In this document: positions 1 to 42,240 of the stretch, one piece after another | Position numbering within the stretch: the stretch's first letter is position 1 | Layout of the letters: every line of letters starts with the position of its first letter | Assembly (NCBI GenBank): GCA_963765145.1 | Contig: CAVXVG010000005.1 | Location: 4,007-68,006 of the forward strand | DNA: 64,000 bases | Direction: 5' to 3' | DNA from: Parachlamydiales bacterium | GTDB taxonomy: Bacteria; Chlamydiota; Chlamydiia; Chlamydiales; JAJFMK01 | Notes under the pieces: generated by a model | What the model was told of the DNA's origin: nothing | What the model saw: the letters and a program-made list of their open reading frames with translations, nothing else | Database searches by the model: none | Translations under genes and position numbers: made by a program

Positions 1-536
1 GGGATCGCCCTACCTTCATTGTCCCCCTCAACAACGGAAAGTTTTTGCGAAAGGTGGGGGTGAAAGGGATCATTGAACTGGATTGGTGGGAATCGTATGG
101 TCCTGTCACTTTAACCCCTTCCCACCATTGGTCTTCCCGCACCCTTTTTGATCGGTGTAAATCTCTTTGGGGCGGCTTTTTGTTCCAAGAAAAGGGGTGG
201 AAAATCCTCTATGCCGGCGATGGGGGATATGCAAATGACTTCAAGAAGATCTACGAAAAATTTGGCTCACTCGATCTGTCTCTCATCTCGATAGGCTCTT
301 ATGCCCCCCGCTGGTTTATGAAAGAACACCACATGTGCCCGGAAGAGGCTTTGCAAGCACACCTCGACCTCCATTCCAAAAAAAGCATAGCTTACCATTT
401 TGGTACTTTCCAGCTAGCCGACGAGCCCTACCACGAACCTGCCGAGCGTCTGAAAGCCGCCCTGCAAGAGCACGGGTTATCGCCAGACACCTTCCTCGTC
501 CCCGAGCACGGCCAAACCTTCAAGTTCTCCCTTTAG
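1..536 (+). CDS. MBL-fold metallo-hydrolase, C-terminal part (gene enters from left edge)
   Basis: Frame of ORF 45..536 stays open back to nt 3. Sequence (ILYAGDGGY, IAYHFGTFQLADEP) resembles beta-lactamase-fold / NAPE-PLD-like hydrolases. Stop TAG at 534-536. Confidence 0.55.
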   Translation, partial: DRPTFIVPLNNGKFLRKVGVKGIIELDWWESYGPVTLTPSHHWSSRTLFDRCKSLWGGFLFQEKGWKILYAGDGGYANDFKKIYEKFGSLDLSLISIGSYAPRWFMKEHHMCPEEALQAHLDLHSKKSIAYHFGTFQLADEPYHEPAERLKAALQEHGLSPDTFLVPEHGQTFKFSL

Positions 537-553
537 TTACCCTTTTTTTTGGG
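483..553. repeat. Direct repeat DR1, copy a (true 3' end of the MBL-fold gene)
   Basis: ccagacaccttcctcgtccccgagcacggccaaaccttcaagttctccctttagttaccc+T8+ggg recurs at 1392-1462. Confidence 0.9.
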
Positions 554-554
554 G

Positions 555-1322
555 CTATGGGTAACGTTCGTTAAATGCATCGATAGCCGCATTAATAACG
601 CCCGTTCCAAGATCTTTAGAGTCAATAAACTTCTGTTCATTATAAAATAAACCAGACTGAATTTGTGACGCTTTGTGATTAGTTGGTTGAAGAATTACAT
701 TTCTTCTAGGCGTCCTAAATAAACTATAATCAACTTCATCATAAGTGAAAGTGATCGAGTTTTTTTCCGTGACACGGCTCATGATTTCTTTAATTCCTTG
801 AGTTGCTACCAATCGGGCGTCTGAGATAGCTGCGGGGTCAACAAGCTTAACTTGTTCACCCTCTACATACTTGTTAAGAGTACCCAGACACGACGCGTCT
901 AAATTTCTTTTAATAAAATCATCGAATGATCCGAATTCTGTAGCTTTTGGCACAAATTTTAAGAATAAAGCCTGCATAACTTCATCTCGATTATTAAATT
1001 TTGAGGCAATAATATCGAGTTTTTTCAAAAAGACAAAGTTGCTCCCTTGAAGGGTATTAGTTGATCTCTCTGGACTCTGGTAATCTCCCGCCATACCAGT
1101 TTCTATAACGTGCTTATCAGGGTTATATTTGATGTATCCTTCCGAAATCAAGAAAGTGTCAGGCAAGCCTTTAAACTCTCCCACTGCTACTTTGATTTTT
1201 CTTGACGCAGCATCTTTCCCTACAGAATTAACTGTACTTTCCCATGCAGTCTTTAGCTTTTCTTGATTCGTGGGCAATATTGGTCGAGCATAAGAACCAT
1301 CACTAGTTAATGTTAAACTCAT
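555..1322 (-). CDS. Hypothetical protein (255 aa), AT-rich orphan cargo ORF
   Basis: Uninterrupted 255-codon ORF with ATG start. Visibly more AT-rich than its neighbours. I recognise no motif. Lies exactly between the DR1 copies. Confidence 0.5.
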   Translation of the reverse strand: MSLTLTSDGSYARPILPTNQEKLKTAWESTVNSVGKDAASRKIKVAVGEFKGLPDTFLISEGYIKYNPDKHVIETGMAGDYQSPERSTNTLQGSNFVFLKKLDIIASKFNNRDEVMQALFLKFVPKATEFGSFDDFIKRNLDASCLGTLNKYVEGEQVKLVDPAAISDARLVATQGIKEIMSRVTEKNSITFTYDEVDYSLFRTPRRNVILQPTNHKASQIQSGLFYNEQKFIDSKDLGTGVINAAIDAFNERYP

Positions 1323-1391
1323 AATAAAAACTCCAATCTTCTATTTTTCATATTAAAGTGAACTATATTTAATAGTAAAGAGTAGGGTGCC

Positions 1392-1462
1392 CCAGACACC
1401 TTCCTCGTCCCCGAGCATGGCCAAACCTTCAAGTTTTCCCTTTAGTTACCTTTTTTTTGGGT
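1392..1462. repeat. Direct repeat DR1, copy b
   Basis: Matches 483-553 with two substitutions and a 1-nt length difference. Still encodes PDTFLVPEHGQTFKFSL-stop on the + strand. Confidence 0.9.
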
Positions 1463-1887
1463 TTTGCTTTTTCAGGTGTGGAAAGAAAGACACGATAATC
1501 TGTTTTTAGGACTGTCGCTAATTTTTTTGCCGTTTTTTCACCAACAGGCCTTTTTCCATTTTCCATCTTGGAAATATTGTCTTGTGAAATGTTGGTAAGG
1601 GCGGATAATTCTTTTTGGGAAAGGCTTTCACGAAAGCGCGCTCCTCTTAGTGCCAAACCTGCTTTTGTATGTTTCTCAATACGGTCTTTGGCAACCTCTT
1701 CCCAGGGCTTAGCCTCATCCCATGACTTTCTTGCGTCTTCTAAATGATCTAAAAAGGATTTTAGGCTTTCTTTAGTTGCCTTGTCGTTTGGTACTTGGTA
1801 AAGGATTTGTTTGTTTCCGGGGATCCCAATCGTTATCTGTATAGTACTTTGAGTACTAGTATGGCGCTGCCTCATGTGTCCCGACAT
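1429..1887 (-). CDS. XRE-family helix-turn-helix antitoxin (HigA-like)
   Basis: C-terminal HTH LSQKELSALTNISQDNISKMENGKRPVGEKTAKKLATVL. Overlaps the upstream toxin ORF. The toxin-then-antitoxin order is as in higBA. Real start may be the M at 1875. Confidence 0.7.
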   Translation of the reverse strand: MSGHMRQRHTSTQSTIQITIGIPGNKQILYQVPNDKATKESLKSFLDHLEDARKSWDEAKPWEEVAKDRIEKHTKAGLALRGARFRESLSQKELSALTNISQDNISKMENGKRPVGEKTAKKLATVLKTDYRVFLSTPEKAKPKKKVTKGKT

Positions 1888-2158
1888 AAAAAACCTCTAT
1901 TTCTTTCCGATTGGTACTTACAACTCTCCAGCAAGCAACAAATGTTGGCTTGCCCCGTTTGAGATGGCAATGGTAGGTGTCTTTTGACAGTTTCCCATAG
2001 TGAGGCCATGCAATTCTTTCAGGGCCGCTTATCTCCATCTCAATGATCAAAAAATCTACTAAATCAGTAATGGAAGGTTTTGTCCTGCCATTTTTTTTTA
2101 GTTTTTCATACTGCTTTTCAGCTTTGTTGGATAAACGAATGTGCCAACGTTCGCCCAT
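1856..2158 (-). CDS. RelE/ParE-superfamily (RelE/YafQ-like) toxin
   Basis: About 100 aa from ATG 2156-2158; the track ORF starts at a TTG at 2215. HCHLKRGKPTFVACWRV ... VFYVGTHEAAPY resembles the RelE/YafQ C-terminal pattern. Paired with the XRE antitoxin. Confidence 0.6.
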   Translation of the reverse strand: MGERWHIRLSNKAEKQYEKLKKNGRTKPSITDLVDFLIIEMEISGPERIAWPHYGKLSKDTYHCHLKRGKPTFVACWRVVSTNRKEIEVFYVGTHEAAPY

Positions 2159-2216
2159 TTCAATCTCTTGGGTAGCATACAATTTGACATATGTCAAATT
2201 AATGAGCAAGGCCAAA

Positions 2217-4484
2217 CTACCAGGGAAAGTGGCGGGCGATGCGGTGGAAGAGGGCTTCGAGACAGGAAGTTAGGACAGAAATTTTGCGGAAGAAGAGGGC
2301 GCTCCAAGAAGAAGGCTCCGGTTGAGCCCTATTTTTCCACTGGTGGGCTGTTTTTGCTTGGGTGATCTCAGCAAGTCTTGGCACATCGACTATAGGGCAG
2401 CGGTTTTTCCACAAAGGGGGAATCTCTACATTTTCACGCATCTCTACGACTAAAAAGAGCTTTCCACATTCCACCTTTTCTTCAATGCGATCCAGAAAGA
2501 TCGATCCAAACTTAGTAGCTAATTGAGTGCCTTGAAAGAAAAGAATCAACTGTTCTGCCTTGTCGGTAATCTCTTCGACCACTTCGCTTAATTGAACTTT
2601 CCGGTCTTGAATATCTTGATAAATTTCATTCAGGTCGATGGTTAAAGTGGCTCTAGAAGGAAATTGCTTGAAAACTTGATGGATCAAGGTAGTCTTTCCA
2701 ACGCGTGGTTGGCCGGTGACAAACACTGCAGTGTATTCATCTGAATGCAAAGCTTTTGTAACAACGTTTGTTTCAGTCCGATCGATACTTGTCTTGGTAG
2801 ATGGGGCGATACGCTTGCCATACTTGTGCAAGAGAGAGGCTTGATCGATCAAGGTTAAATGTGGGTCGTTCTTCAATCGTTCAAGTTCAAGTGTGACATC
2901 CTCAGCCGACAACTTTTCTATTTTAGCTAACCTGTTGATGACAACTTCTGGAGTGACTTCTGTGATCCCCTCTCTTGAGGCTCGGTTACAGATAGTATCG
3001 AGGAGCTTATAGGCAGAAGAGGGGAGCCCTTCATGCTTTACGAACTTAAAAGAGAGGTAAACAATGGCTTCCAGAGCTTCGGATGTAATCGAGAAAGGGG
3101 CTTCATGTTTGCAGTAGCTTGCTTCAAGCCGTTTTTTATCAAGCTTGAGCACTTCAAGAGCTAGCTTGGGGGTCATTCTGTCGATTTTTTGAAGCTGAAA
3201 ACGGCGTACAAAGTCGGGAGCTGACTTGACCAAACGTTCAAATTTCAACTCGGTGGTCATAGCGACCATAGGAAAGTTTGCCTCGTCAATGTGGGTCAGT
3301 AAAAGATCGGCAATCGTCGTCTCTTGCGACGAATGACTATCGGAAGTTTGAGAAATTTCATCAAAGACGATCAAAACTTCGTTGGCATGCTTTTTTGCAT
3401 AGTCGACAAGTGTTTGGATCTTTCCTTCCATCATGCCACGATAGGGAGTGTTTGCGAGCAATCTGCTAGTATCTACAAACAAGACCCTTCGTCCTTTCAT
3501 ATTGTCAGGGGCTTTACCTTCATGAATTCTTCGGGCAATTTCTCTGGCGATTTGCGTTTTACCACACCCTGTAGGACCTGTAAGAAGAACAGATGATAAT
3601 TTCTTTCCACCTAAGTCATCAAAAATTGACTGGATCTCTTCCTCTCGGCCATAAGCCGGAGAGATTAGCCCCTTTTCTGCAAGCTCGGTAAGATCGATTG
3701 TAAAGGTTTTGATATCCACTTCGGATTTGCCAGCTTGGGAACCTAGGATCTCTTTAAAAAACGATTCCATCATTCTTTCCGGATGGCGATCAACTTTAGA
3801 CGGTTTTTCTATCCGATACTCGCCTGAAATCGAAGGGAGTTCTTCTTGAGTAAAGGTGCGTGTGGAAAATGCGTTTTTTAAATCTTCATCTAATAAAACA
3901 GCGCTGAATTTTGCACCCTCTTGCAGGGATGTCTCCTCAAAATCGACAAAAACTGTCTTGTCAGTCCCATAAGCTGAGATGATTTGCTCTCGCAAGAAGA
4001 CTTTTTCCTCATTTGGCAAAGAGGGTTCAATAAGAAAAACCCGTTTGGCAATCTCATCCTCTCCTGGTTTTGTGTCAGGCTTTTCATATTTCATCAGGTA
4101 GGCAAGGGTCATGAGTTGATTTTTTGCCTCTTCAAGTCCCAATGATTCAAACGAGGTAATCATCGACGAAACAATCCTCATATTTCGGTAATGATATTGT
4201 AGAAAAAGCTCCCGACCTTTTTCATTTTCAGAAACCATTTCGAATGCTTCGTCTGTCAGGTCACGTACGAGCCCATTATCCATCATCTTTTGTAGAACTT
4301 TTTTGGCGTTCTGATCTGCCTGAGGTAAATAATGGGGCTTTTCTAGGGGTGCAGGCGGCAAAGAGCGGCTGACCCCATTGGTAAATACATGAGGGGGCAG
4401 AATGGGTGCAGTCTTAGTCGGAATGATCTTAAAGTTTGGCCAGGCGGGGATCCAAGAATATAGCTTATTAAGGTTGAATAGCAT
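2217..4484 (-). CDS. Divergent Clp/Hsp100-type AAA+ ATPase with novel N-terminal module and degenerate second P-loop domain
   Basis: Residues about 265-520 align by eye with the D1 domain of the clpC in this window. Shared elements: GREEEIQSIFD..LLTGPTGCGKT (Walker A), YRGMMEGKIQTLV, LIVFDEI (Walker B), FVRRFQ. A second P-loop, VTGQPRVGKTTL, lies near residue 590. Confidence 0.75.
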   Translation of the reverse strand: MLFNLNKLYSWIPAWPNFKIIPTKTAPILPPHVFTNGVSRSLPPAPLEKPHYLPQADQNAKKVLQKMMDNGLVRDLTDEAFEMVSENEKGRELFLQYHYRNMRIVSSMITSFESLGLEEAKNQLMTLAYLMKYEKPDTKPGEDEIAKRVFLIEPSLPNEEKVFLREQIISAYGTDKTVFVDFEETSLQEGAKFSAVLLDEDLKNAFSTRTFTQEELPSISGEYRIEKPSKVDRHPERMMESFFKEILGSQAGKSEVDIKTFTIDLTELAEKGLISPAYGREEEIQSIFDDLGGKKLSSVLLTGPTGCGKTQIAREIARRIHEGKAPDNMKGRRVLFVDTSRLLANTPYRGMMEGKIQTLVDYAKKHANEVLIVFDEISQTSDSHSSQETTIADLLLTHIDEANFPMVAMTTELKFERLVKSAPDFVRRFQLQKIDRMTPKLALEVLKLDKKRLEASYCKHEAPFSITSEALEAIVYLSFKFVKHEGLPSSAYKLLDTICNRASREGITEVTPEVVINRLAKIEKLSAEDVTLELERLKNDPHLTLIDQASLLHKYGKRIAPSTKTSIDRTETNVVTKALHSDEYTAVFVTGQPRVGKTTLIHQVFKQFPSRATLTIDLNEIYQDIQDRKVQLSEVVEEITDKAEQLILFFQGTQLATKFGSIFLDRIEEKVECGKLFLVVEMRENVEIPPLWKNRCPIVDVPRLAEITQAKTAHQWKNRAQPEPSSWSALFFRKISVLTSCLEALFHRIARHFPW

Positions 4485-4491
4485 GGTGATC

Positions 4492-6243
4492 TCAAGTAGT
4501 GCTTAGAAGCTCTTTTCGCTTCTTTTCATCTAAAGCCTTAAAGAAAGCCTTAAATTTTAGATCTTCAGGCAAGCAGATACAGTTAACGTTATTTTTCTCT
4601 CCATAGTTGTTTGTAAAAGTGACAAAAAGTGCCTTTAACTTATAAATAGATCTGATTTCTTCTTTCACAAGAAGAGCTTCGTCTGGCGTTAAGCTGGGGT
4701 GAATCCAGAAAAATCTTCTTGTAAACTCACTCTCTTTTGGTCGATCGGTTTTCATGTAAAATGCAGCAGCTCTGACGGCCTCTTCTGCAGATTTCTTGCC
4801 ACTATTAGGTAGGGCAATGGTGACATTGCCATTACCCATTTTCATTTGGGCAAAAGATTGTTTTTTCCACTGAGAAGAAAAAGCCGCCTCATCAGTAATG
4901 TCACGAATAAGACCCGCCTTTTCGTAGGGGAGGAGTTCTTCGGCTTTTCTTGGCAAATAATCCTTTTTGCTATGAAGCTTGTCTATGTAAGAACGGGCTG
5001 CTTGGCTGAGTGGGGGAGGTGTCGCTTTTTCTTTTTTTCTCACTTCTTGAATAACATAAGAGCCAGGTTCTAAGCTGCAAGCCTTCCATGCATGATCAGA
5101 AGATTCCAAATCTACTTTTTCCCAAGACTCCAGAAGAGCGGCAGTTTTATCTAATGTGAAAATTTGCTTTGTAAGTAACTGTTTGTCAACCCCATTGAGT
5201 CTCTCATGGAGAACATAAATCCGTTTTGCTTTTTCCTCTCCTTTCAGAGGCAATGTTTTCATTAAAAAAGCGACATCATTAATAAGCAATTTTCTTTTAG
5301 AAGATACTGAGCCTCCTGAGGGTGTAAGACTTACAGCGTAATAGTCTTCCATATAGAGGGTAGGTAAATCGCGTGTGTTTTGGCGTAGCGCTTCGACAAT
5401 CTTCTTGGCATCATTGTAGAACTTAGTTCTTTCAGGAGTCGCTTCATTTGCTTCTGTTGTGTCAGTTATTTCGCGAACGAGTCCAAGGCTCAGAAGTGTT
5501 TGCATTTCTGAACTAATGAGAGGTAAAAAGTTCTCTGTAGAAATCGTTTGTTCTCCGTGGTCGACATAATGACCACCGAGGCGAAGAGGGCCATCTGCTT
5601 GCGCTTCCCTCAGCTCTTTCATTCCTGGTAAATGATCGAGTTTTTCTGGAATCGGAGGAAATCTTTCAGCTTCGTCCATCTCTTGTTGCAGTGTTTTTAA
5701 CACCTCATTTCCCTTCTCGGTAATGTAGGCATAAGAAAGCTTTTTTTTAAAACTTTCTGGCAAAATCAGGTAAGTTCCAGAACCTACCCTGTCAAATTTA
5801 TGCTTGTCGGCTGTACACTCAGCAATGCAGGCATATCGGTCGTACACAGATTTAAGCTTCCATCTAACTAACACTTGCTGTTCTTCTGTCAATTTTTCAG
5901 AGAGTATGAAAATTCTTTTAGGAGTCTCGTCTTTCTCAGCAGGCGGTTGAATTTTCATGAGAAGTGCAGTGGTTTTCATGAATGCCGTTACACTGGATGC
6001 ATTGATCTGAACCATCCCTGAAAAAGATCTTATCATGCGTACAGATTGCTGCTGATCAGGAGTTATTAGGTCAGCATGACAGGAACATGTGTAAGCATCT
6101 ACTGTAAGGTCGCGGACCAAGCCGGTAGTGATCAAGTCATAAATTTTTTCATCGAGCTTGGGTAGATAGCTTCTAGAGTTAGATGATTCCAATTTACTTA
6201 AAGCATTGAAAAACGGATTTAATATTGTAGCAAGAAAAGACAT
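4492..6243 (-). CDS. Protein built of three copies of the module found at the N-terminus of the adjacent ATPase
   Basis: The pattern YLP..GL(V/I)R(D/E)(L/I)TD ... (F/L/Y)MK..P...(K/R)R(I/V/F)(F/Y)...L..E...L...I..(Y/L) repeats three times. Ends 7 nt before the ATPase gene start. Confidence 0.6.
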   Translation of the reverse strand: MSFLATILNPFFNALSKLESSNSRSYLPKLDEKIYDLITTGLVRDLTVDAYTCSCHADLITPDQQQSVRMIRSFSGMVQINASSVTAFMKTTALLMKIQPPAEKDETPKRIFILSEKLTEEQQVLVRWKLKSVYDRYACIAECTADKHKFDRVGSGTYLILPESFKKKLSYAYITEKGNEVLKTLQQEMDEAERFPPIPEKLDHLPGMKELREAQADGPLRLGGHYVDHGEQTISTENFLPLISSEMQTLLSLGLVREITDTTEANEATPERTKFYNDAKKIVEALRQNTRDLPTLYMEDYYAVSLTPSGGSVSSKRKLLINDVAFLMKTLPLKGEEKAKRIYVLHERLNGVDKQLLTKQIFTLDKTAALLESWEKVDLESSDHAWKACSLEPGSYVIQEVRKKEKATPPPLSQAARSYIDKLHSKKDYLPRKAEELLPYEKAGLIRDITDEAAFSSQWKKQSFAQMKMGNGNVTIALPNSGKKSAEEAVRAAAFYMKTDRPKESEFTRRFFWIHPSLTPDEALLVKEEIRSIYKLKALFVTFTNNYGEKNNVNCICLPEDLKFKAFFKALDEKKRKELLSTT

Positions 6244-6292
6244 ATATTCTATTTTATAGACATTCTATTTAAAAATAAATTGATTTTTACTT

Positions 6293-6563
6293 CGCAACGC
6301 GTTTGGAGTGCTCGAACTCTTGTTGCGCTTTGACTTTCAAAGAGTGAAAGCGCAACAAGAGTTCGAGCACTCCTGAGTAAGTCTCTTAAAACACAATTCT
6401 CTTAAACTTAAGAAATACTCTCTGTGATCTCTCGAGTCCTCTGTGGTTGAAATATCTTTAAATTTTTATAACCACAGAGGACTCGAGAGATCACAGAGAG
6501 TATGAAAACTTACTTCATGATCTTAGGGACGGCAGTCTCTTCCTTGCTCCAAACGCTAGCGCG
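6293..6563. repeat. Composite palindromic repeat, family G (termini CGCnAnGCGTTTGGAG / CTCCAAACGCnnGCG)
   Basis: Contains hairpin gtgctcgaactcttgttgcgc...gcgcaacaagagttcgagcac and the cacagag hairpin at 6418-6500. Related copies at 24390-24944, 29049-29471 and 52029-52696. Confidence 0.85.
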
Positions 6564-6573
6564 TGGGGTGGGG

Positions 6574-7533
6574 TTACCACACAGGGATGATGCCGGTGAG
6601 GTTGTTGCGGTCCCATTGAGTGTGGATGGATGCTTGAGGATCATACTCCAGTTGGCCGTTCATCTGGTTGTACACCATGAGATTGCGCTCATCATATCGG
6701 TCGAGGAAAATATTGGTTTGAGAAGTGTGCACATCAAACCCCGGCTTTGCGACGATTGTTGTTCGCTTGCTGCCATCTTCCAGCTTTTCTTCAATCGTTT
6801 CGTAACGAGTGGTAGGCATCAAATTCCAGTGAGATTTTGTATCGAGTAATTCTCGTCTGAAGACAAGGGTCTGGCCTACGAGAGATCTATCGCCCATCTG
6901 ATCAAAGATCAGGGTTGCTACACTGAATTGATTCAAGCGAAGAGCTAAAAGAAAAGGGGTTGCTTCGATGAATCGTTGCGGTTGGAGAGATCTTTCCGGC
7001 AGACGAGGGGCAAAATGCTTTGTAAAGAAAAATTCACCTGTGTCTTCGTTGAGCCACGCATGGGTGTTGAGCTCTGCCCCTTGGCGGATCTTCTTTTCTG
7101 CAAGAGAGGGATTGTCGGTAGCGATCGCTTTAAATAGTTCTTTTGAAAGGATGTCCTTTGTGTATTGGCTGATGTTGCCTCTCATGAACCGTTTTTCGCC
7201 ATATAAAGGGAGCACTCTAAACTGATAGCTAGAGAGATCTTTGTAGCTCAGCTCTTGAAGGGAACGGAAGTCATCGGCCTGATTTTTGAGCATGAACTCA
7301 CGGACGCTATTGATGTTGGCATAGACCTTTTCGCCATTCACTGTGATGGTGACAGCTTTGCCAAGGATGTAAGCGCCGGCTTGTGTTAGTGCATTATTAT
7401 AGGTGTCGATGCTACCTGCGTAGTCGCCATTGATCGCAAAATGGGTTCTACCCCCATCTACAACTGTATCGATAAGTTCAGCTTTTTCGATTCTCATTTG
7501 AAAGTCCTTTTTTTTAGAAGTCAACATTCTCAC
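6574..7533 (-). CDS. Hypothetical protein, possibly with two ankyrin-like repeats
   Basis: ELFKAIATDNPSLAEKKIRQGAELN and ATPFLLALRLNQFSVATLIFDQMGD resemble the ankyrin consensus (TPLhlA...LL..GAD). Lies 17 nt downstream of mfd on the same strand. Confidence 0.45.
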   Translation of the reverse strand: MRMLTSKKKDFQMRIEKAELIDTVVDGGRTHFAINGDYAGSIDTYNNALTQAGAYILGKAVTITVNGEKVYANINSVREFMLKNQADDFRSLQELSYKDLSSYQFRVLPLYGEKRFMRGNISQYTKDILSKELFKAIATDNPSLAEKKIRQGAELNTHAWLNEDTGEFFFTKHFAPRLPERSLQPQRFIEATPFLLALRLNQFSVATLIFDQMGDRSLVGQTLVFRRELLDTKSHWNLMPTTRYETIEEKLEDGSKRTTIVAKPGFDVHTSQTNIFLDRYDERNLMVYNQMNGQLEYDPQASIHTQWDRNNLTGIIPVW

Positions 7534-10749: not shown

Positions 10750-10988
10750 ACCACAGAGGCACAGAGATCACAGAGGAAATATGAGAGCAATGAGAGAGAC
10801 TGCTGCTATACATTTTAACTTTTTTTCTTTGTGTATCTTTATCTTCGTGTCTTTGTGTCTTCGTGTTTAATTTTTTTAAAATGGTTGGAACACAAAGACA
10901 CGAAGGCACAAAGAAAGAAGGATGCTTCCTACGAGCAATACACTCACTGCTCTCAATCTTTCTCTGTGATCTCAGTGCCTCTGTGGTG
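10750..10988. repeat. Nested hairpin repeat (cacagag family with inner cacaaag hairpin)
   Basis: Outer arms are ccacagaggcacagagatcacagagg / cctctgtgatctcagtgcctctgtgg. An inner palindrome lies at about 10826-10918 (ctttgtgtcttcgtgtt...aacacaaagacacgaaggcacaaag). Confidence 0.85.
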
Positions 10989-10998
10989 AAATGAAAAA

Positions 10999-13596
10999 TC
11001 ATTCGATGAGGCTCAAAAACAGTTTGGAAGCCTCTTCAAAGCGGCCCCGATTCTTCATCACACCCTGGGCAAGGTTTGGGCGTCCACCCGCGCTGCCGTC
11101 GACGACCGCAGCTACTTTTTTGAGGAGATCGGCGGCGTTGTGCCCTTTTGCAACCAACTCTTCGTTGATCCTTAAGATGAGGGGAGAAACTTGCCCCTCT
11201 TTTGTTGTGATCAAAAAAGCTTGGAAACGTTGATCAGTAGCTAAAAGTTCGGCCACCTCTTTCAATTCGTCTTGAGAAACGTCAAACGTGGTAACAAGAG
11301 TTTTTTGAGCAGGCAAAGCTTGAAGCAGGTTTTTTAATTCCAATCGCTTAGCCTCTTTTAAATCTTTTTGAAGATTTTTGTTTTCCTCAAGCAGCGATTT
11401 TACTTTGGTGACGAGTGTTGGACCAGACCCTTTCAACAACTCTTCAAGGGCAAGAAGGGTTGCCTCTGCATTGCGGTAGTGCAACAGGGCTTCTTCTCCG
11501 GTCACCGCTTCGATCCGGCGGACGCCGGAAGCGATGCTCCCCTCTTTTACAATTTTTAAAAGGCCTAAAGTCCCCGTTGATTGGGCGTGTGTTCCCCCGC
11601 ACAGTTCGATTGAAGGGCCCATTTGGACAACACGAACTTTTTCACCATACTTTTCGCCAAAAAATTGCTTAATATCAGAACGTCCTTTGACAGCATTGTA
11701 GGCTAATTCTTCCGTTTTAACAGGAACGTTTTGCAAAATCAGCCGATTGATGATCCCTTCAATAGAGGCAATTTCTTCGGAGGTCAACGGTTTATGGTGG
11801 TTGAAGTCGAAACGGAACCGTTCTCCTTCTACCAAAGAACCGGCCTGTTTGATGTGGTCGCCCAACACTTGAGCCAACGCATAGTGAAGCAGATGAGTTG
11901 CCGAGTGGTTTTTTTCCACTTTTCGACGATTTTGGGCATCAAGCGTAGCAGAGATGGTTTCATTAGCCTCTAAAGAGCCCTCTTTCATGACGCCGTAGTG
12001 GAAAGTTAAACCTGTAAAGGGGGATTTTGTCGTCTGAACTTGAAAACGTCCGGTTTTGCATTCAAGCAACCCTTTATCGCCCGATTGTCCACCCATCTCT
12101 GCATAAAAAGGGGTTTGATCAAGCAAAACGGCCCCTTCATCCCCTTCTGAAAGGCGATCGACAAGCTCTCCGTTTTTCATCAAAGCGACAATTTTTCCTG
12201 TCGAGTGGTCGTGACCATAACCGGTGAAGGTGGTCGCCCCTGCTTTATTCAGAAGCTGTTGGTAGACCTGGGATGAAACTTCTTGGCTGGTTGTCTTTTG
12301 GCTTTGTTTCGACCTTTCACGTGCCTCTTTTTCAAGCACGGCAAACCCATCTAGGTCTACTTTAAGGTTACTATCTTTGGCTAAAAGGACGATCTCATCA
12401 ACCGGCAGGCCGTAAGTATCTTTAAGCTTAAAAGCATCAGAGCCCGAAATCAGATGAGAGGCACCGGCATTTTCGATCACTTCTCGTAAGAGGTTGCCGC
12501 CTCGCTTGAGGGTGCGGAAAAAACCTTCTTCTTCTTGTGTCAATACGTCGGCGATGATCGACTGGTGTTTTTTAAGTTCAGGATAGTCTTCGCCCATCTC
12601 TGCAACTAAAGTAGGCAAAATGTCGGCTAGGAAAGGTTTTTCGAAGCCTAAATTTTTTCCATAACGTACGGCCCGTCTCAACACTTTACGTAAGACATAG
12701 CCCCGGTCGACGTTGCCGGGCTGAACCCCGTCTGCAATAGCAAAAGATAGTGTTCTTAGATGGTCGGCGATCACACGGAAAGCAGGAGCTAATTTATCGT
12801 CATCGGCTTTGTAGACAAGGCCGGAGTGCTTTTCAATTCCGTTAATTAAACTGCGCAAAATATCTGTTTCAAAAACAGTGTCAACACCGCTCTTGAGCAT
12901 CATGACTCTTTCAAGGCCACTACCGGTGTCGATGGAAGGGTTTGGAAGGGGGTGTAAAACGCCATCCTGCGTCCGGTTGTACTGCATGAACACCAAGTTC
13001 CAAAACTCGATGAACCGATCGCCTGTTGGGTCATCTTTAGGAGAGGTCCCGGAACCATAAGCGTCACCTCTGTCGAGATAAAGCTCGGAGCATGGACCGC
13101 ATGGGCCGGTTTCACCCATCGCCCAGAAGTTGTCTTTTTCTCCCATTCTGACGATGCGGGAGGCAGGGACATAACGGGTCCAAAGCTTAAAAGCCTCTTC
13201 ATCGGTTTCAAAAACTGAAGGCCAAATTTTTTCTGCAGGAAAGCCGAAAATTTCAGTAGCTACTTCCCAAGCGTAGGCAATGGCAGCCTCTTTGAAATAA
13301 TCGCCAAACGAGAAGTTGCCCAACATTTCAAAGAAGGTGAGGTGCCTTGCGGTATGACCTACGTTTTCTAAGTCGTTGTGTTTGCCCCCGACCCGTAAAC
13401 ATTTTTGGCTTGTCACGGCCCTCTTGTAAGAGGCTTGACGATGTCCCAAAAATAAATCTTTAAATTGATTCATTCCTGCATTGGTAAACAACAAAGTTGG
13501 GTCGTCATGCGGCAAAAGAGGAGAAGAGGGAAGAAGCGTATGTCCACGCTCTTGGAAATAGTGGAGATAATTCTCCCGAGTTTTTTGGCTGTCCAT
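10999..13596 (-). CDS. alaS: Alanine--tRNA ligase
   Basis: FTNAGMNQFK, HLTFFEMLGNFSFGDYFK, editing-domain HSATHLLH and a C-terminal DHHA1-like region. Full length, 865 aa. Confidence 0.96.
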   Translation of the reverse strand: MDSQKTRENYLHYFQERGHTLLPSSPLLPHDDPTLLFTNAGMNQFKDLFLGHRQASYKRAVTSQKCLRVGGKHNDLENVGHTARHLTFFEMLGNFSFGDYFKEAAIAYAWEVATEIFGFPAEKIWPSVFETDEEAFKLWTRYVPASRIVRMGEKDNFWAMGETGPCGPCSELYLDRGDAYGSGTSPKDDPTGDRFIEFWNLVFMQYNRTQDGVLHPLPNPSIDTGSGLERVMMLKSGVDTVFETDILRSLINGIEKHSGLVYKADDDKLAPAFRVIADHLRTLSFAIADGVQPGNVDRGYVLRKVLRRAVRYGKNLGFEKPFLADILPTLVAEMGEDYPELKKHQSIIADVLTQEEEGFFRTLKRGGNLLREVIENAGASHLISGSDAFKLKDTYGLPVDEIVLLAKDSNLKVDLDGFAVLEKEARERSKQSQKTTSQEVSSQVYQQLLNKAGATTFTGYGHDHSTGKIVALMKNGELVDRLSEGDEGAVLLDQTPFYAEMGGQSGDKGLLECKTGRFQVQTTKSPFTGLTFHYGVMKEGSLEANETISATLDAQNRRKVEKNHSATHLLHYALAQVLGDHIKQAGSLVEGERFRFDFNHHKPLTSEEIASIEGIINRLILQNVPVKTEELAYNAVKGRSDIKQFFGEKYGEKVRVVQMGPSIELCGGTHAQSTGTLGLLKIVKEGSIASGVRRIEAVTGEEALLHYRNAEATLLALEELLKGSGPTLVTKVKSLLEENKNLQKDLKEAKRLELKNLLQALPAQKTLVTTFDVSQDELKEVAELLATDQRFQAFLITTKEGQVSPLILRINEELVAKGHNAADLLKKVAAVVDGSAGGRPNLAQGVMKNRGRFEEASKLFLSLIE

Positions 13597-13686
13597 AGGA
13601 GAAATTGTATCGCAAGCAAACGAAAAATAACAGAGTGAACAGAATGCACGGACAGAAGCATCAACCTAAGGAAAAACATCCTATAA

Positions 13687-13833
13687 ATTTAACAGGGTGA
13701 ACAGGATGACCAGGATAAGCTCTGCCTAATTTCACTCTAGAGTGGTAAATAAAGAGCAAAAAAAGGCTTCATTTAATTAGCGCCTATTGGTGGCGAAGCT
13801 TATCCTGGTCATCCTGTTCACCCTGTTAAATTT
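13687..13833. repeat. MITE-like inverted repeat, family B (arms TTAACAGGGTGAACAGGATGAnCAGGATAAGC)
   Basis: The roughly 40-nt arm atttaacagggtgaacaggatgaccaggataagctctgcc has its reverse complement about 65 nt downstream. Other copies at 22767-22927 and 39811-39966, plus a half copy at 42148-42205. Confidence 0.85.
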
Positions 13834-13855
13834 ATTGGTGTGATGAGCGGAATCG

Positions 13856-14464
13856 TTATTCGATTTGTTCTTTTGTTAAGGAAAATCCCGTGATTGGTGG
13901 GTCGTCATCCCAAAAGCTTAAAGGGGGAGGCGGGGCGTTGAAAAAGGCGTCTTTTTCAAGGAAGCGGTCGACCGCTTCCCGTTCCTCAGTCGAAAATTTA
14001 AATCCGAAGTCTTTCAAATGGTCCCAAGGAACTTTGGTGGGTGCCGGTTGCGAGGATAAAAGGGATTTGCCGTGGACAAAAATTTTTTGTGTGGCATCTT
14101 CCCCGCCTGCAGAGAGGAGGGCTAGCGCCTCGCCGAAGTTGTAAGCCACTCCTAATGCATTGACGCCGATAGCGCTAAATTTTTTCAAACTTAAGCCTAT
14201 CTCTGCGGTGACCGAGGAAAAACGGGGAGAGCTATAATCTGCGTCACTCACTTGATGTACAGCTTTTTGAGAGTTTTGAACGTTTTTTACTGACTCCATC
14301 GTTTTAGCGTAGATAGCAGTTAAAGCGATGATAAGAGCTGCATTTCGTAAAGCCGGATTCCCAAACCACCCATCAATCACACGGCCAAGAGTCATCCATC
14401 CAGGGTTTTGTGTTTGATGGATCACATCGATCCCCACAAAGACTAAAGGCGTTAAACTACTCAT
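13856..14464 (-). CDS. Hypothetical protein (202 aa)
   Basis: ORF with the ATG at 14462-14464 forming an ATGA overlap with the stop of the upstream membrane-protein gene. No recognised motif. Confidence 0.45.
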   Translation of the reverse strand: MSSLTPLVFVGIDVIHQTQNPGWMTLGRVIDGWFGNPALRNAALIIALTAIYAKTMESVKNVQNSQKAVHQVSDADYSSPRFSSVTAEIGLSLKKFSAIGVNALGVAYNFGEALALLSAGGEDATQKIFVHGKSLLSSQPAPTKVPWDHLKDFGFKFSTEEREAVDRFLEKDAFFNAPPPPLSFWDDDPPITGFSLTKEQIE

Positions 14465-15336
14465 TTGATCCAGATGAGCACTGCCGTTAATAGGCAAAGT
14501 GCTGAAATCTCAGATTTTCTAAGTTCTTCTTTTAAAATGAAATACCCTCCTAATGATGCAATCAATGGGGTGCAGTTCAGAATAGGCCATGTTAAATAGG
14601 AATGTGGCTGCCCAAGCGCAAGGAGAAAAGCCCCTTGGGTGAACAGGAAGGCAAATGTCCGAAGAAGGGTCATCGGAATATTCATTGTCGCCATCACCTC
14701 GGCCATCCAAAGAGCCGGGTGTTTGGCTTTGAACAGAAGGGGAATGAACGAATAGACCACCCGGCAGCCTAAGATGGCATTGTTTAGCAGCCAAAACGCC
14801 TCAACAGTTTGTATGCCTCCGTCTTTTGGCAAAAAGACAAACACGACGGCTTGAAAGTTGATGGCAAAAGCGATGGTGATCAGCGAGATCCAAGGAATAT
14901 GTTTGAAAAAGTTGCCATTGCGGATAAACAGGGGGCAAAAGGCAAGAAGGGAGGCAGCGTAAAAAAGATATTCCCTCTCACTCCAGGCTCCAGTGATCGG
15001 CAGCAAACAAAGAGGAATCAATACCTCTCCAATTTTTGACAGGATCATCACCCGTGTGATTTCCATATGCTTAAAAGCAAAGGAAAAACTATAGGAGGCC
15101 AGCTGTATGGCTAAAGCAAAAATCCAAGGTCCCGGCTGCAAAAAGAGGTCGAGAAAGTTTTGCACCGGAAAAAAGATGAGCGAAATGACCAGGCAAAGGA
15201 TAAAGGGGAGGGTGACATTGAAAAGGGCGTTGAGGAACAAATCTTTTGTTTTCATTCCTAAAAGGTAGCGGTCGATAAGGTTGACACCCCCTCTGCAGAA
15301 TGCAGAAAAGAGGGCAACCCAAAGCATGGGATCCAT
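14461..15336 (-). CDS. Polytopic membrane protein (DMT/EamA-like by topology only)
   Basis: About ten hydrophobic segments across 291 aa. Family assignment is tentative. Confidence 0.5.
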   Translation of the reverse strand: MDPMLWVALFSAFCRGGVNLIDRYLLGMKTKDLFLNALFNVTLPFILCLVISLIFFPVQNFLDLFLQPGPWIFALAIQLASYSFSFAFKHMEITRVMILSKIGEVLIPLCLLPITGAWSEREYLFYAASLLAFCPLFIRNGNFFKHIPWISLITIAFAINFQAVVFVFLPKDGGIQTVEAFWLLNNAILGCRVVYSFIPLLFKAKHPALWMAEVMATMNIPMTLLRTFAFLFTQGAFLLALGQPHSYLTWPILNCTPLIASLGGYFILKEELRKSEISALCLLTAVLIWIK

Positions 15337-16584: not shown

Positions 16585-16586
16585 CT

Positions 16587-29048: not shown

Positions 29049-29471
29049 CGCAACGCGTTTGGAGTGCTAAACGGCCTTGTTGCATAATTCAATTTCTAAT
29101 TAAAAAATGTAGCTCCAGGCTTTAGAAGTACTTGCAAAAATCGGATTGTTGGCTTTTTTTTAGAAACAGGTCCGAAGACCGAAATATGAAAGCCCAGCGC
29201 CGAAGGCCTGGGTTACAAATGTGAAATAAAATTGGAGTCCTGAAAGGACGGCATAAAATATCTCCTGTAGTGTTTGTGGAACAGGATATGTCGTCCCTTC
29301 AGGACTCCAATTTCTATTGGCATACTTACCCTGGCCTTCGACCAGGGCTTTCATATTTCGGCCCTTCGGGCCTGTTTCTGAGCTTAATCTGATTTTTGCA
29401 AGTGCCTCTAAAGTCTAAGCTACAATATTTGTCCAAATTAAGATTAATTATGCGCTCCAAACGCTAGCGCG
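29049..29471. repeat. Family G palindrome split by a nested family E element
   Basis: Reads cgcaacgcgtttggagtgc...ttgttgcataatt [E] aattatgcgctccaaacgctagcgcg. Confidence 0.8.
29108..29424. mobile_element. MITE-like 317-bp palindromic element, family E, copy 1
   Basis: Terminal inverted repeats tgtagct..ctttagaagtacttgcaaaaatc.gatt / aatc.gatttttgcaagt.cctctaaag.ctaagctaca, with long internal symmetry. No credible coding capacity. Confidence 0.85.
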
Positions 29472-37909: not shown

Positions 37910-37932
37910 GCCACACCTTGTTGCATACTAAA

Positions 37933-38249
37933 TGTAGCTTAGACTAAAGAGCCACTTGCAAAAATCAGATTAAGCTCAGAAACAGGCCCGAAGGGCCGAA
38001 ATATGAAAGCCCTGGTCGAAGGCCAGGGTAAGTATGCCAATAGAAATTGGAGTCCTGAAGGGACGACATATCCTGTTCCACAAACACTACAGGAGATATT
38101 TTATGCCGTCCTTTCAGGACTCCAATTTTATTTCACATTTGTAACCCAGGCCTTCGGCGCTGGGCTTTCATATTTCGGTCCTTCGGACCTGTTTCTAAAA
38201 AAAAGCCAACAATCCGATTTTTGCAAGTACTTCTAAAGTCTAAGCTACA
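37933..38249. mobile_element. MITE-like 317-bp palindromic element, family E, copy 2 (inverted relative to copy 1)
   Basis: Reverse complement of 29108-29424 with only a few mismatches by eye. Confidence 0.85.
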
Positions 38250-38286
38250 TTTTTTGTTCTCTGTGCTATCTGTGGTCGCGGAATCA

Positions 38287-39698: not shown

Positions 39699-39810
39699 AT
39701 CGTTAAAGATTCTTCCTCATTCCCACTAAACAGGCAATCCAAAAAATAACCAGATGGCTAAGTATATTTGCATGAATCAAAGACATTCTTGTTGTGACGC
39801 CAGAAAAAAA

Positions 39811-39966
39811 TAACAGGGTGAACAGGATGAACAGGATAAGCTCTGCCCACAAAGGAAATGTTTTTTTAAACAAATGGAAAGAATGGCTTCGCCTCTGCTT
39901 TTACCATTTTGAAATAGAGAGGCAGAGTTTATCCTGTTTACCCTGTTAAATTTTTAGGATGCTTTT
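39811..39966. repeat. MITE-like inverted repeat, family B
   Basis: Left arm taacagggtgaacaggatgaacaggataagctctgcc; right arm ggcagagtttatcctgtttaccctgttaaatttttaggatgc. Confidence 0.85.
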
Positions 39967-40004
39967 TCCTAGGTAATGCCGCTAGCGCGGACTGCTTATT
40001 TTTG
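39907..40004. repeat. Direct repeat DR3, copy a (orphan copy of MITE arm + recF 3' end)
   Basis: ttttgaaatagagaggcagagtttatcct..gtttaccctgttaaatttttaggatgctttttcctaggtaatgccgctagcgcggactgcttatttt matches 42132-42240. Confidence 0.85.
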
Positions 40005-40025
40005 TTTGGATGTGGGTATGGTTCT

Positions 40026-41435
40026 TTAATCTGGAAATAAGGCGAGGACTAGATGTCTTTTATCCAAAGTCGTCGGAAGTGGTAGCAGATTAATATCAGT
40101 TTTAATGTAGTAGAGTTCTTTTAGTCGTTTATAAAGCATGTTGATGAATTGTCTTAAGAGATAAAATTCCGGCATGAACATCTGATATTGGCGAATGGCT
40201 AACTGGGCGCTAGTGATCTGATCAATAGACTTAATCTGTTTCAATTTCTCTAATAGCTGAGGAAGCTTTTCTTTTGAAAACCGATAAGGGATGTCGGCAA
40301 AGGATTCATCCATCATTTGGTGAAAGGGAAACTTGAGAAACTTTTCTAGGCGGACTTCCAAATCTTTAGCGAAACTTAAAAACAGTTGATAACACTCTTT
40401 GTAAACTTTTGCGTGTTGAGTCATTTTATGTTCAACTTGATCTTGAATCGTTTCAATTCCATCAACACAATCATCCACCGGATAGAGATCGCCTAAAAGG
40501 TGGCTTACAGTTTTCTCAAAGTCGTCATTGAGTTCAAAGTCCATAAAAAAGTTTCCTTGTCGAAAAGCATTCAAAATCTCAATCACCCCCTTCCAGTCTT
40601 GCCCAAAGTGAGGTGGGCTGCGCAGAATGGGAGCGATAAAAGCTGGCAATAATGGCTCTATTTGGATTAAGCAATTGCGAAAAAGTACTGTCTTAGTTAT
40701 TTCAGAACTATTTTGGAGCCCGGGAATTACTGAACGGATTGCAATAATTGCTTGGAGTATTCTATTCCAGGTAGGGGCTGTTTTTGGCAATTTGCCGATG
40801 ATAACTTGCAATTCTTTTTGTTTTTTTAATTCATAGTTTTTTTTGTTTTTTACCTGTGTTGCTATGAGTATCCCTGCTGCGGCAAAATGGTCAAGCGCAG
40901 TCATCAAGCTTCTTTTAGAGTATCCTATTTCAACGAGGTCGGCGGCTGAAAAATACTTCCCTTTTCGTGCGAGAAAGTGTGTCAAGATGTCAGCTTTTGC
41001 CCCAGGGCCAAATAAGCTTCGTGTTCGAAGCGCTAGAAGGGAGGGAGATTCAAGCGGCGGAAGCAAAGATTTTCCGCTCAAGTGAACTTTAAATTGAACT
41101 GTCTCTTCTGCGCTCGGCCACTTTGCTGATGATATCGAATTTAAAGCTGCAGCAAATTGTGAGAAAGAGCGCATTGCATCATTATTCAATCCTTTTAGAA
41201 GCGCGCGTAGCCGACTGACCGAAACATACTCATGGTAGCGAGAGAGCCAATCTAAGGCTTCATCGCGTAGGCGAGGGTCATATTCTGAGACAACTGTAGT
41301 CAAAATAATCAACTCTTCTGGTGGGATTAGGCAGTTCTCGTGAAAGCGGTCGATTCCGGCTACCCCCAATTCTTTCCACAAGCTCCATGCAAGTCCAGCA
41401 AGCAGGTGATCAAACTCTTCCTTCATTTCCACCAT
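40026..41435 (-). CDS. Hypothetical 469-aa protein with central winged-helix-like segment
   Basis: ADILTHFLARKGKYFSAADLVEIGYSKRSLMTALDHFAAAGILIATQ looks like a wHTH. Its start lies 1 nt after the stop of the upstream nucleotidyltransferase gene. Confidence 0.55.
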   Translation of the reverse strand: MVEMKEEFDHLLAGLAWSLWKELGVAGIDRFHENCLIPPEELIILTTVVSEYDPRLRDEALDWLSRYHEYVSVSRLRALLKGLNNDAMRSFSQFAAALNSISSAKWPSAEETVQFKVHLSGKSLLPPLESPSLLALRTRSLFGPGAKADILTHFLARKGKYFSAADLVEIGYSKRSLMTALDHFAAAGILIATQVKNKKNYELKKQKELQVIIGKLPKTAPTWNRILQAIIAIRSVIPGLQNSSEITKTVLFRNCLIQIEPLLPAFIAPILRSPPHFGQDWKGVIEILNAFRQGNFFMDFELNDDFEKTVSHLLGDLYPVDDCVDGIETIQDQVEHKMTQHAKVYKECYQLFLSFAKDLEVRLEKFLKFPFHQMMDESFADIPYRFSKEKLPQLLEKLKQIKSIDQITSAQLAIRQYQMFMPEFYLLRQFINMLYKRLKELYYIKTDINLLPLPTTLDKRHLVLALFPD

Positions 41436-41436
41436 T

Positions 41437-41991
41437 TTATTCTCCGAGTTGTAGTAATGCTTCAGCTAAAGTTCTCGCAAATTCTTCTGATACGTCATGC
41501 GTTTTACACCAAAAGCCCGCTTTTAAAAGCTCTTCGCTTGTGGGGTGTAATCGCTTTAAATCTTCGAAATGCTTGGAGCCGGGGCCTTGATCGACTGAGG
41601 CATAGAGTTTAAAACAAATCTGATCAAACCGGCTTGCGCAGAAGAGGGTTAGTCCACCGAAGTGGATGGGTTCTAAGCGCTTTTGAAATCCTTCTGGTAG
41701 TCCCATTTCCCATAAATCGGCTGCTGTGGAATTGATCCAGTCTTCAGGCAGCTTAAGTGCCGTTCCAACTTCTCTAATTGCTGCAAGAAGTGGAGCTGGT
41801 AAGGGTCTGGCTGAAATGAGCTCGTTTCCATCGATCATGGCAACAACATCTACATCTTTTGTAGGTCGAATGACGCATCCCAATAATAATAAGGCGCCTC
41901 CACCAATGGCGACTATTTCATATTTCAATCCTTTATCTGACAAATAGGAGCCTAATACCTCTAAGGCATCATTTAATGTATTTGAATCCAT
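41437..41991 (-). CDS. Minimal nucleotidyltransferase-fold protein (MNT / AbiEii / DUF6036-like)
   Basis: From ATG 41989-41991 (MDSNTLNDALEVL). Contains the polymerase-beta-type NTase pattern IGGGALLLLGCVIRPTKDVDVV (G-G-x-A ... R-x-T-x-D-x-D). Confidence 0.6.
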   Translation of the reverse strand: MDSNTLNDALEVLGSYLSDKGLKYEIVAIGGGALLLLGCVIRPTKDVDVVAMIDGNELISARPLPAPLLAAIREVGTALKLPEDWINSTAADLWEMGLPEGFQKRLEPIHFGGLTLFCASRFDQICFKLYASVDQGPGSKHFEDLKRLHPTSEELLKAGFWCKTHDVSEEFARTLAEALLQLGE

Positions 41992-42131
41992 AATGCTCCA
42001 GATCGAGAAGTTTAACATCTCAATTCGACATCTTAATCTTACCAAAAAGTGAATTAAAATGGTAATGCGGCTTGCTTTAGCCAATACCAACTATGGTTTG
42101 GGGGAAGCCTTTTTTGTCTCTGTTTCTACCG

Positions 42132-42240
42132 TTTTGAAACAGAGATAGGCGGAGCTTATCCTATTGATCCTGTTCACCCTGTTAAATTTCTAGGATGCTT
42201 TTTTCCTAGGTAATGCATGCTAGCGCGGACTGTTTATTTT
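42132..42240. repeat. Direct repeat DR3, copy b (half family B MITE + true recF 3' end)
   Basis: See DR3 copy a. Contains the recF stop codon at 42220-42222. Confidence 0.85.

Follow-up and report, generated by a model that had tools for sequence, protein, structure and literature searches.

Duplications made by transposases or by Cas1 are short and of fixed length, and events of the long interspersed nuclear element (LINE) type need a reverse transcriptase and leave tails. Integron cassettes are recognized by an attC imperfect palindrome (R''/L''...L'/R' boxes) after the open reading frame (ORF), by intI and by their arrangement in arrays. Free-standing mobile ORFs of organelles and phages, such as those at fungal mitochondrial atp6 and cox, insert at the 3' end of a gene and leave the displaced end as a downstream pseudo-copy. 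The minimal mobile elements of Neisseria are exchanged by homologous recombination in flanking genes (Saunders and Snyder 2002, as used in PMC1797815). Classical mobile elements are described as scarce in environmental chlamydial genomes (PMC4209131). These genomes gain many accessory or effector-type genes all the same, and the route by which single genes enter is the open question addressed here. We analyzed a 64,000-nt stretch of a Parachlamydiales bacterium genome (assembly GCA_963765145.1, contig CAVXVG010000005.1, positions 4,007–68,006 of the forward strand; hereafter the window), in which four accessory gene cassettes are each bracketed by a pair of direct repeats, DR1 to DR4. The repeats are of local origin, relatives carry empty sites, a comparable cassette recurs in a second species, and we detected neither mobility genes nor end motifs shared by the inserts. 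The insertion of at least four small foreign gene units at gene boundaries with duplication of the target points to a recurrent, not yet described insertion process.

Cassettes and their bracketing repeats

Repeats were detected by scanning the window for them and by comparing it with itself in blastn, with edges set by global alignments; direct repeats spaced 0.5–5 kb apart were retained and paralogous genes were set aside. All four pairs listed in an earlier note on this DNA are present, ranging from 55 to ~148 nt and from 78 to 94% identity. Dispersed elements resembling MITEs (miniature transposable elements with inverted repeats) aside, they are the sole non-paralogous direct repeats at this spacing in the self-comparison, the remaining repeats being those MITE-like elements and a tandem family of OMP paralogues (47–55 kb). 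The identical filter, applied to 77 unrelated 20-kb loci from other genomes (1.33 Mb in total), passed five pairs, three of them 'clean', against four pairs in the 64 kb of the window, which places the density here at ~15–30 times background. The best-looking control pair (L012), the single one inspected, is a protein-kinase gene fragment and not a cassette.

Logan contigs L100 and L081 (run ERR11630400; 99.95–99.98% identical) span both copies of DR1 and both copies of DR3, and in L101 (97.8%), an ENA contig of a different sample, the DR3 cassette shows left/right copy differences identical to those in the window. Independent assemblies thus reproduce two of the four pairs, DR1 and DR3, which are therefore not assembly artefacts. 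The possibility that the repeats are ordinary dispersed sequence was also checked: in the self-comparison all of DR1, DR2 and DR4, and the part of DR3 outside its MITE (39970–40022), occur only twice each. As had been proposed, the repeats do not represent one common sequence and instead duplicate the local backbone, namely the 3' end of a metallo-beta-lactamase-fold (MBL) gene at DR1, the 5' end of a TPR gene at DR2 and the recF 3' end with a MITE arm at DR3; the fourth, DR4, is indeed an intergenic terminator hairpin. No k-mer of 6 nt or more is common to three or more of the repeats, leaving no core motif, and no fold is common to DR1–DR4 and the repeat of a fifth cassette described below, only DR4 folding better than shuffled sequence. 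The boundaries are sharp, and hidden extension, tested at DR1, DR3 and DR4, was in no case significant. Searching with the proteins of recF, hemN and the MBL fragment recovered relatives at several distances; a genome-contig scan with a hemE-like protein returned distant genomes only (best 40% identity), of which two chlamydial loci were kept for synteny.

The DR2 cassette lies between hemN and the TPR gene. Its previously noted pair stood, consisting of a left copy, L (23066–23128, + strand), which is a pseudo-copy of the TPR upstream region and first 7–8 codons, and a right copy, R (25004–25066, +), which is the functional TPR upstream region and start (ATG at 25042); the two are 81% identical over 63 nt. 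The extent of the duplication had to be enlarged, since a more sensitive search uncovered an outer pair: H (22709–22761, +), the functional hemN 3' end, and H' (24336–24389, +), a degenerate pseudo-copy of it just right of the cargo start codon. H and H' are 74–75% identical, and none of 500 shuffles scored as high. Because H' is a copy of the hemN end, the duplicated target ran from ~52 nt inside hemN, through the intergenic region, to TPR codon 8, or ~150 nt after discounting later MITE insertions. These later arrivals fill 22764–23065 in the first target copy (MITE A at 22764–22970, then a second small palindrome) and 24390–24992 in the second (composite dispersed repeats related to 52029–52662 and 6308–6557), where an ancestral 11-nt flank (24993–25003) precedes R. 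The insert proper is only 23129–24335 (− strand) and comprises a 378-aa DUF7790 ORF (23127–24263) with 72 nt upstream. The last ~30 nt of this ORF resemble the terminal inverted repeat of another element, MITE C, and the junction between cargo and target, the sole one assessable for microhomology, shows 4 nt of it (AAGC) inside this MITE terminal-repeat fragment.

A single-copy empty site, of the kind that the earlier note called for, exists in close relatives (L091–L093; hemN 97% identical in amino acids, DNA 92–94%), which carry hemN, 198 nt and the TPR gene, with a different MITE and exactly one copy of DR2. In a three-way comparison over 63 columns, the relative alone differs at 4, R alone at 8 (grouped immediately ahead of the ATG) and L alone at 4. 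This star-like pattern indicates that both window copies are local derivatives of one ancestral sequence. The TAATT of the relative, the ancestral state, persists in H' and has been altered in the functional hemN end. In a 68% relative clpB comes directly after hemN, which makes the TPR gene an earlier insertion in its own right at the hemN site. Occupancy of the hemN–TPR/clpB site thus varies from empty (L091), to the 378-aa ORF (window), to a fifth cassette with different cargo (L094), and L106 is without the TPR gene.

This fifth cassette, in a 77% relative (L094), separates hemN from the TPR orthologue and consists of a 292-aa ORF of no recognized function. The functional hemN 3' end (11305–11360) lies on one side of it and a frameshifted copy (12643–12697) on the other, 85.7% identical over 56 nt; the ORF is encoded on the plus strand, its stop codon lying 27 nt from the downstream repeat copy. 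Each hemN pseudo-copy resembles its own lineage's hemN, and the closer relative L091 has none, so the two hemN-end duplications are most simply independent events. Both begin at the same aligned hemN column, TTTT[C/T]GA. This shared column marks either a breakage hotspot or an old bracket that was homogenized by gene conversion and lost in L091. Across the five events the duplications measure 55, 56, 71, ~135–148 and ~150 nt. At three events, two of which lie at the same hemN site, a TTCG stands no more than 8 nt from the left boundary, against a background of 4.5%; this observation was made post hoc.

At DR1, the left copy (483–553, +) holds the functional last 17 codons and stop (534–536) of the MBL gene plus 17 nt downstream, with a weak extension to 466, and the right copy (1392–1461, +) is a pseudo-copy of the MBL 3' end. 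Identity is 94% over 70 nt, or 89.8% over 88 nt if the copies are begun at 466 and 1378. On its minus strand the right copy encodes the last 11 codons of a helix-turn-helix (HTH) gene (1429–1887), from which it follows that the MBL and HTH genes overlapped tail to tail before the insertion. Its coding differences amount to two synonymous changes only, and each window copy retains some states in common with the relative L098. The insert (554–1391, −) has ~37% GC and consists of a 255-aa orphan ORF (555–1322) and 69 nt upstream. This ORF had no homologue among 1.84 billion representative proteins or in plasmids or phages, and no family match; yet a GGAG ribosome-binding site precedes its ATG by 8 nt. 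In a 76% relative (L099) the orthologue of the window gene at 6574–7533 comes directly after the MBL gene, which makes all of 555–6570 accessory; this block is missing from L099. Beyond the cassette, the block holds the XRE-type HTH gene overlapping a 119-aa ORF (1429–2215, −), which resembles a toxin-antitoxin pair, and then (2217–6243, −) a 755-aa double P-loop/AAA ATPase followed by a 583-aa protein without a family.

The DR3 left copy (39888–40022, −) comprises the right half of a complete MITE A (39804–39969), a hairpin and a pseudo-copy of the last 14 recF codons; the right copy (42113–42260, −) comprises half a MITE A, the hairpin and the functional recF 3' end (stop codon 42220–42222). 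They are 77.7% identical over 148 gapped columns. Between them lies the insert (40023–42112, −), with a 469-aa ORF (40026–41435), a DUF6036 nucleotidyltransferase (41437–41991, or to 42090 from an upstream start) and 22–121 nt upstream. An empty recF site was found in the 77% relative (L082/L083; complete 2.6-Mb genomes, ENA ERZ25039454 contig_3920 and ERZ25039480 contig_18258), in which recF, 281 nt and DAHP synthase follow one another with no cargo. We rejected the idea that the DR3 boundary marks the center of the MITE palindrome, as it falls somewhere in the 73-nt central spacer, a position that is not significant. The C-terminal tail of recF (window 42223–42260; L082 10975–11011; L086 2120–2153) changes by frameshift and extension, reading ...EIKKK* in the 77% relative, ...EVRKKTTG* (running on into a MITE) in the 93% relative and ...EIRKKINSPR* in the window.

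DR4 is a bidirectional terminator hairpin. Its left copy (16532–16586) lies between a HIT-domain gene (stop 16492) and the cargo, a 496-aa BTB/POZ-domain protein (16587–18077; stop codon at 16587) that with 209 nt upstream makes up the insert (16587–18286, −); the right copy (18287–18341) repeats the same hairpin, and identity is 85% over 55 nt. The stems of the two hairpins (16550–16570 and 18306–18324) are identical and the 3-nt loop is reverse-complemented, TTC versus GAA. A flip of this kind is produced by template switching or by recombination between stem arms, and the inversion between copies matches what is expected from copying through a hairpin. A metagenome contig scan with the HIT-domain protein recovered no close relative for this site. 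DR4 sits in the alaS–tkt interval, whose content differs in every lineage examined. Across Chlamydiales this interval is variable (window 13597–18445; L094 2907–7000; L016 7317–7574; L001 3150–8003): alaS and tkt are adjacent in a Waddlia metagenome-assembled genome (MAG), elsewhere 4–5 kb of differing genes separate them, and a single gene (window 14461–15336) is common to the window and the 77% relative. L001, a MAG of the Parachlamydiaceae, has a second copy of a 248-nt internal alaS segment upstream of the gene (2445–2690 and 3595–3830; 73% identical), perhaps a further case of partial gene-end duplication in this interval.

The cargos are mutually unrelated, comprising the 255-aa orphan, the BTB/POZ protein, the DUF7790 protein, and the DUF6036 nucleotidyltransferase with its 469-aa partner of unrecognized fold. 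Their GC content is 37–44% against 45–50% in the backbone, and the inserts measure 0.8–2.1 kb. That cargo stop codons abut the left repeat copy was borne out, and the distance first given, 0–22 nt, narrows with refined edges to −2 to +3 nt (stops at 555, 16587, 23127 and 40026). After the stop there are 0–1 nt at DR1, 0 nt at DR4 and 3 nt at DR3, and at DR2 the stop overlaps the repeat by 2 nt; upstream of the ORFs there are 69 nt (DR1), 72 nt (DR2), 209 nt (DR4) and 22–121 nt (DR3). The proposal that cargo is always on the minus strand holds for all four window cassettes and fails for the fifth; likewise, each of the four window cargos runs antisense to the positive-GC-skew strand and the fifth is opposite. 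Within the 64 kb, the ORFs tested (Pfam, NCBIfam, PADLOC, PHROGs) yielded no domain of an integrase or recombinase, a transposase or a reverse transcriptase, in keeping with the suggestion that no recombinase is on board, whether in the cargos or in neighboring ORFs. The window has no tRNA genes, and no terminal inverted repeats or shared end motifs of the inserts were found. Searches of the cargos against PADLOC, PHROGs and NCBIfam gave nothing usable, sequence searches of the PDB were empty or marginal, the 378-aa and 469-aa proteins had no relatives in viral contigs, and we found no circular or alternative-context copy of any cargo. Single-sequence AlphaFold models of the 255-aa and 469-aa proteins were poor (pLDDT 34 and 42) and gave no basis for fold searches. 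The window's gene map is compact with many overlaps, and dispersed palindromic elements crowd the gene-end positions used by the cassettes.

How the cassettes may have arisen

The geometry at the cassettes is left flank, copy, insert, copy, right flank, both copies being local where DR1 and DR2 could be polarized. We favor, at what we judge to be roughly an even chance, the explanation that they are recombinase-independent insertions that duplicated their target through repair synthesis at breaks, with survival of those events that preserved both neighbors. The unit captured would be a compact non-backbone gene unit of one or two ORFs, with 20–380 nt upstream and almost nothing past the stop, and capture would take place at a chromosomal break near a gene boundary. 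Illegitimate repair would then copy 55–150 bp of target to both sides of the insert. A widely staggered break might be filled in; alternatively, and this we prefer, one broken end would be extended briefly on the sister chromosome and then joined to the foreign fragment, a route that could be labeled aborted synthesis-dependent repair or template switching. Insertions would presumably be tolerated only where the duplication regenerates the ends or terminators of both neighbors, and in a compact genome of abutting or overlapping genes such a filter would give the survivors their appearance of 'regenerated gene ends'. The repeat copy beside the cargo stop could thereafter act as the cargo's 3' end or terminator. 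Later, the 55–150 bp repeats may allow RecA-dependent excision and reinsertion into empty sites of sibling strains, by which the cassettes could behave as minimal mobile units at fixed hotspots. Break capture with limited repair synthesis is favored because the duplications (55–150 nt) are too long and variable for a known transposase or Cas1-type ruler. The AAGC microhomology at the end of the 378-aa ORF, the inverted loop of DR4 and the palindromic elements crowding gene ends all fit repair synthesis.

Several points weigh against this explanation. Nothing in random capture leads one to expect four of five inserts to finish within 3 nt of the cargo stop, or two independent events to share a hemN breakpoint, and for a rare repair accident four events are many in 64 kb. 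A single event should have produced H' and L alike, yet H' has diverged ~3 times more along its branch than L has. Donor sequences were not found for any of the cargos, and the repair pathway is inferred, not observed. Stop-codon precision, the reused breakpoint, event density, the unequal divergence of H' and L, and the TTCG excess remain unexplained by it.

Homology-guided cassette exchange, in which a circle carrying cargo and one local copy enters by a single RecA crossover (Campbell type) and so duplicates the homology, is a possibility akin to the Neisseria minimal mobile elements that we consider fairly unlikely. Such circles could come from repeat-by-repeat excision in a sibling strain, and since repeats of 55–150 nt exceed the minimum length for RecA pairing, the brackets are adequate for it. 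Copies that are all local or near-strain, with a star-like DR2 tree, would fit a donor about as diverged as a sister lineage, and different lineages do carry alternative cargos at the same syntenic hotspot. The DR1 right copy, with only its two synonymous coding changes, looks as if it had evolved as a working gene end, but two changes are too few to weigh. Exchange would, moreover, account for spread and not for origin, as the first cassette still requires a duplicative event; at DR2 the entire ~150-nt region forms the bracket, its two copies having been filled by MITEs independently; and no circular or alternative-context cargo turned up. Another rival is a dedicated insertion system encoded elsewhere in the genome and acting in trans, which would nick preferred target sites and insert ORF-trimmed units; candidates are an integrase with long staggered cuts, or retro-like, target-primed copying of a transcript or single-stranded intermediate ending at the stop codon. 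Junctions lying −2 to +3 nt from the stop in all four window cassettes, short upstream parts (69, 72, 209 and 22–121 nt) that could be 5' untranslated regions, the hemN breakpoint shared by independent events, the post hoc TTCG signal at three left boundaries, the uniform antisense orientation of the window cargos to the positive-GC-skew strand and the unusual event density all speak for it. Yet no reverse transcriptase, integrase or nuclease candidate lies within the 64 kb, there are no tails, terminal motifs or terminal inverted repeats, duplication length varies threefold, and the fifth example has 27 nt after its stop and the opposite orientation. The stop of the 378-aa ORF, furthermore, lies inside MITE-derived sequence, where a DNA breakpoint in a palindromic element explains it equally well or better. 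We hold such a system to be improbable. In its boldest form, this chlamydial clade would possess a dedicated, as yet undescribed single-gene installer that breaks DNA at preferred sites near gene ends (e.g. hemN TTTTCGA, twice), takes up stop-trimmed units, copies 55–150 bp to both sides and spreads orphan or effector-type genes such as BTB proteins; this, too, we regard as a long shot.

Decayed site-specific integrative elements (genomic islets, or remnants like cis-mobilizable elements, CIMEs) would have brought their own integrase and an attP with the target gene end, and later been deleted down to one or two cargo genes. Like many island att sites, the repeats do restore gene ends (recF and MBL 3' ends), their copies are imperfect (78–94% identical), and the cargos are accessory and low in GC. 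Five 'att' sequences without a shared core would nevertheless imply as many different integrases, every one since lost; among the repeats, one corresponds to a gene 5' end and one covers a complete intergenic region with both gene ends; both copies are local; the 0.8–2.1 kb inserts hold no integrase pseudogene debris; and there are no tRNA targets. We consider this origin very unlikely. Finally, the cargos could be ancestral and the repeats leftovers of tandem duplication and deletion, chance, dispersed repeats or artefacts. An 'empty' site can in principle result from repeat-by-repeat deletion, and DR3 does include a dispersed MITE arm. This reading is largely refuted, and we give it next to no weight: outgroups at three distances are without the cargos, cargo GC is atypical, the unique parts of the repeats (DR1, DR2, DR4 and 39970–40022) occur only twice, independent assemblies agree, and alignment scores are far above those of shuffled sequence.

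The cassettes are datable footprints of single gain events, with both junctions kept, empty sites in relatives and one hotspot reused. If ordinary break repair made them, they let illegitimate gene capture be seen directly, as is rarely possible, in an obligate intracellular bacterium and show genome compactness selecting for insertions that regenerate gene ends. If stop precision and the recurrent breakpoint hold genome-wide, a new insertion mechanism is indicated. The 55–150 bp brackets predict RecA-mediated excision and reinsertion, a recombinase-free gene mobility that can be tested.

Other repeats in and around the window

At least four families of MITE-like palindromic elements occur in the window, almost always 0–30 nt from a stop codon (13646–13847, 22764–22970, 39804–39969 and 42113–42206; 10750–10996; 29082–29453 and 37930–38257; 6305–6564, 24390–24944 and 52027–52700). 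In the relatives L091, L098 and L086, different MITEs immediately follow the hemN, MBL and recF stop codons. The sole match of an Rfam scan was the Acido-Lenti-1 RNA (RF01687), just above gathering score, at 29329–29373 (+) and 37984–38028 (−) in both copies of MITE C, and in this lineage the motif may belong to a mobile repeat. Tandem Legionella_OMP-family paralogues occupy 47384–55209 (−), one copy apparently split (52731–53291 and 53263–53940); copy number is 3 in L081, 2–3 in L082 and 0 in L087. Within the composite repeat region, 52285–52638 is a near-perfect tandem duplication of a 177-nt unit (97–99%). A 99-nt direct repeat in the Waddlia MAG L016 (17072–17170 and 18700–18798; 98% identical, 1.6 kb apart) has only short ORFs between its copies.

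Comparison with known insertion systems

The likeness to attL/attR drawn in the earlier note holds for the layout: as in islands and CIMEs, direct repeats bracket accessory DNA and regenerate the target end, with one functional copy each (MBL 3', recF 3', and TPR 5' with hemN 3'), and as in CIMEs no recombinase is on board. Site-specific integrative elements carry a tyrosine or serine recombinase in or beside them (a CIME depends on a cognate element elsewhere), and the sites of one recombinase have a defined core in common. As a mechanism the analogy is not supported, because the window repeats share no core or target type, vary in length and are local copies; they include a 5' end, a bare terminator and an intergenic region, and the units are only 0.8–2.1 kb. 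Both copies are local at DR1 and DR2, the two cases that could be polarized against a relative, so neither looks like a foreign, element-borne attP, and since the DR2 duplication spans the intergenic region and both gene ends, its geometry is that of a target duplication and not of an att core.

An integron cassette was rejected, as only DR4 folds better than shuffled sequence, there is no integrase, the loci are four separate ones and the repeats derive from the backbone. A DDE or HUH transposon, or MITE-borne cargo, was rejected for want of terminal inverted repeats and shared ends and for the variable 55–150 nt duplications, and a diversity-generating retroelement, in which a template repeat and a variable repeat at a gene's 3' end differ at adenines and a reverse transcriptase lies nearby, because there is no reverse transcriptase, the mismatches show no adenine specificity and some of the repeated sequence is non-coding or from a 5' end. 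With target-primed retroposition the cassettes have in common a variable duplication; they have no tails, and no reverse transcriptase was found in the window. Their inserts do end at stop codons. Organelle and phage mobile ORFs offer a close structural parallel, a single ORF bracketed by a diverged duplicate of a host-gene 3' end. Those ORFs, however, encode the homing endonuclease that drives them, whereas the cargos here have no recognizable nuclease domain and are mutually unrelated.

The Neisseria minimal mobile elements resemble the cassettes in holding one to three accessory genes between conserved genes, with alternative cargos per site, no mobility genes and MITE-type repeats nearby, and the hemN–TPR/clpB, recF–DAHP synthase, MBL–mfd and alaS–tkt intervals differ in content among relatives as the definition of such elements requires. 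To our knowledge, minimal mobile elements, which move by DNA uptake followed by homologous recombination in the flanks, carry no duplication of those flanks, whereas every cassette here is bracketed by a 55–150 bp target duplicate. In that respect the geometry, with both copies derived from one resident sequence, is that of target-site duplications (transposons, LINE-type retroposition, CRISPR repeat duplication by Cas1-Cas2, paired-nick insertions) and of the duplications beside templated insertions made by synthesis-dependent end joining or by break-induced replication mediated by microhomology (MMBIR), and the variable length is shared with the latter repair-synthesis products. We know of no report of such products recurrently delivering whole functional genes in bacteria, and the literature search likewise gave none. 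The earlier remark that no described mechanism produces this pattern is fair, in that searches of the literature on Chlamydiae, on long target duplications and on homology-facilitated illegitimate recombination with duplication yielded no description of it. The cassettes are best filed as target-duplicating illegitimate insertions at minimal-mobile-element-like hotspots.

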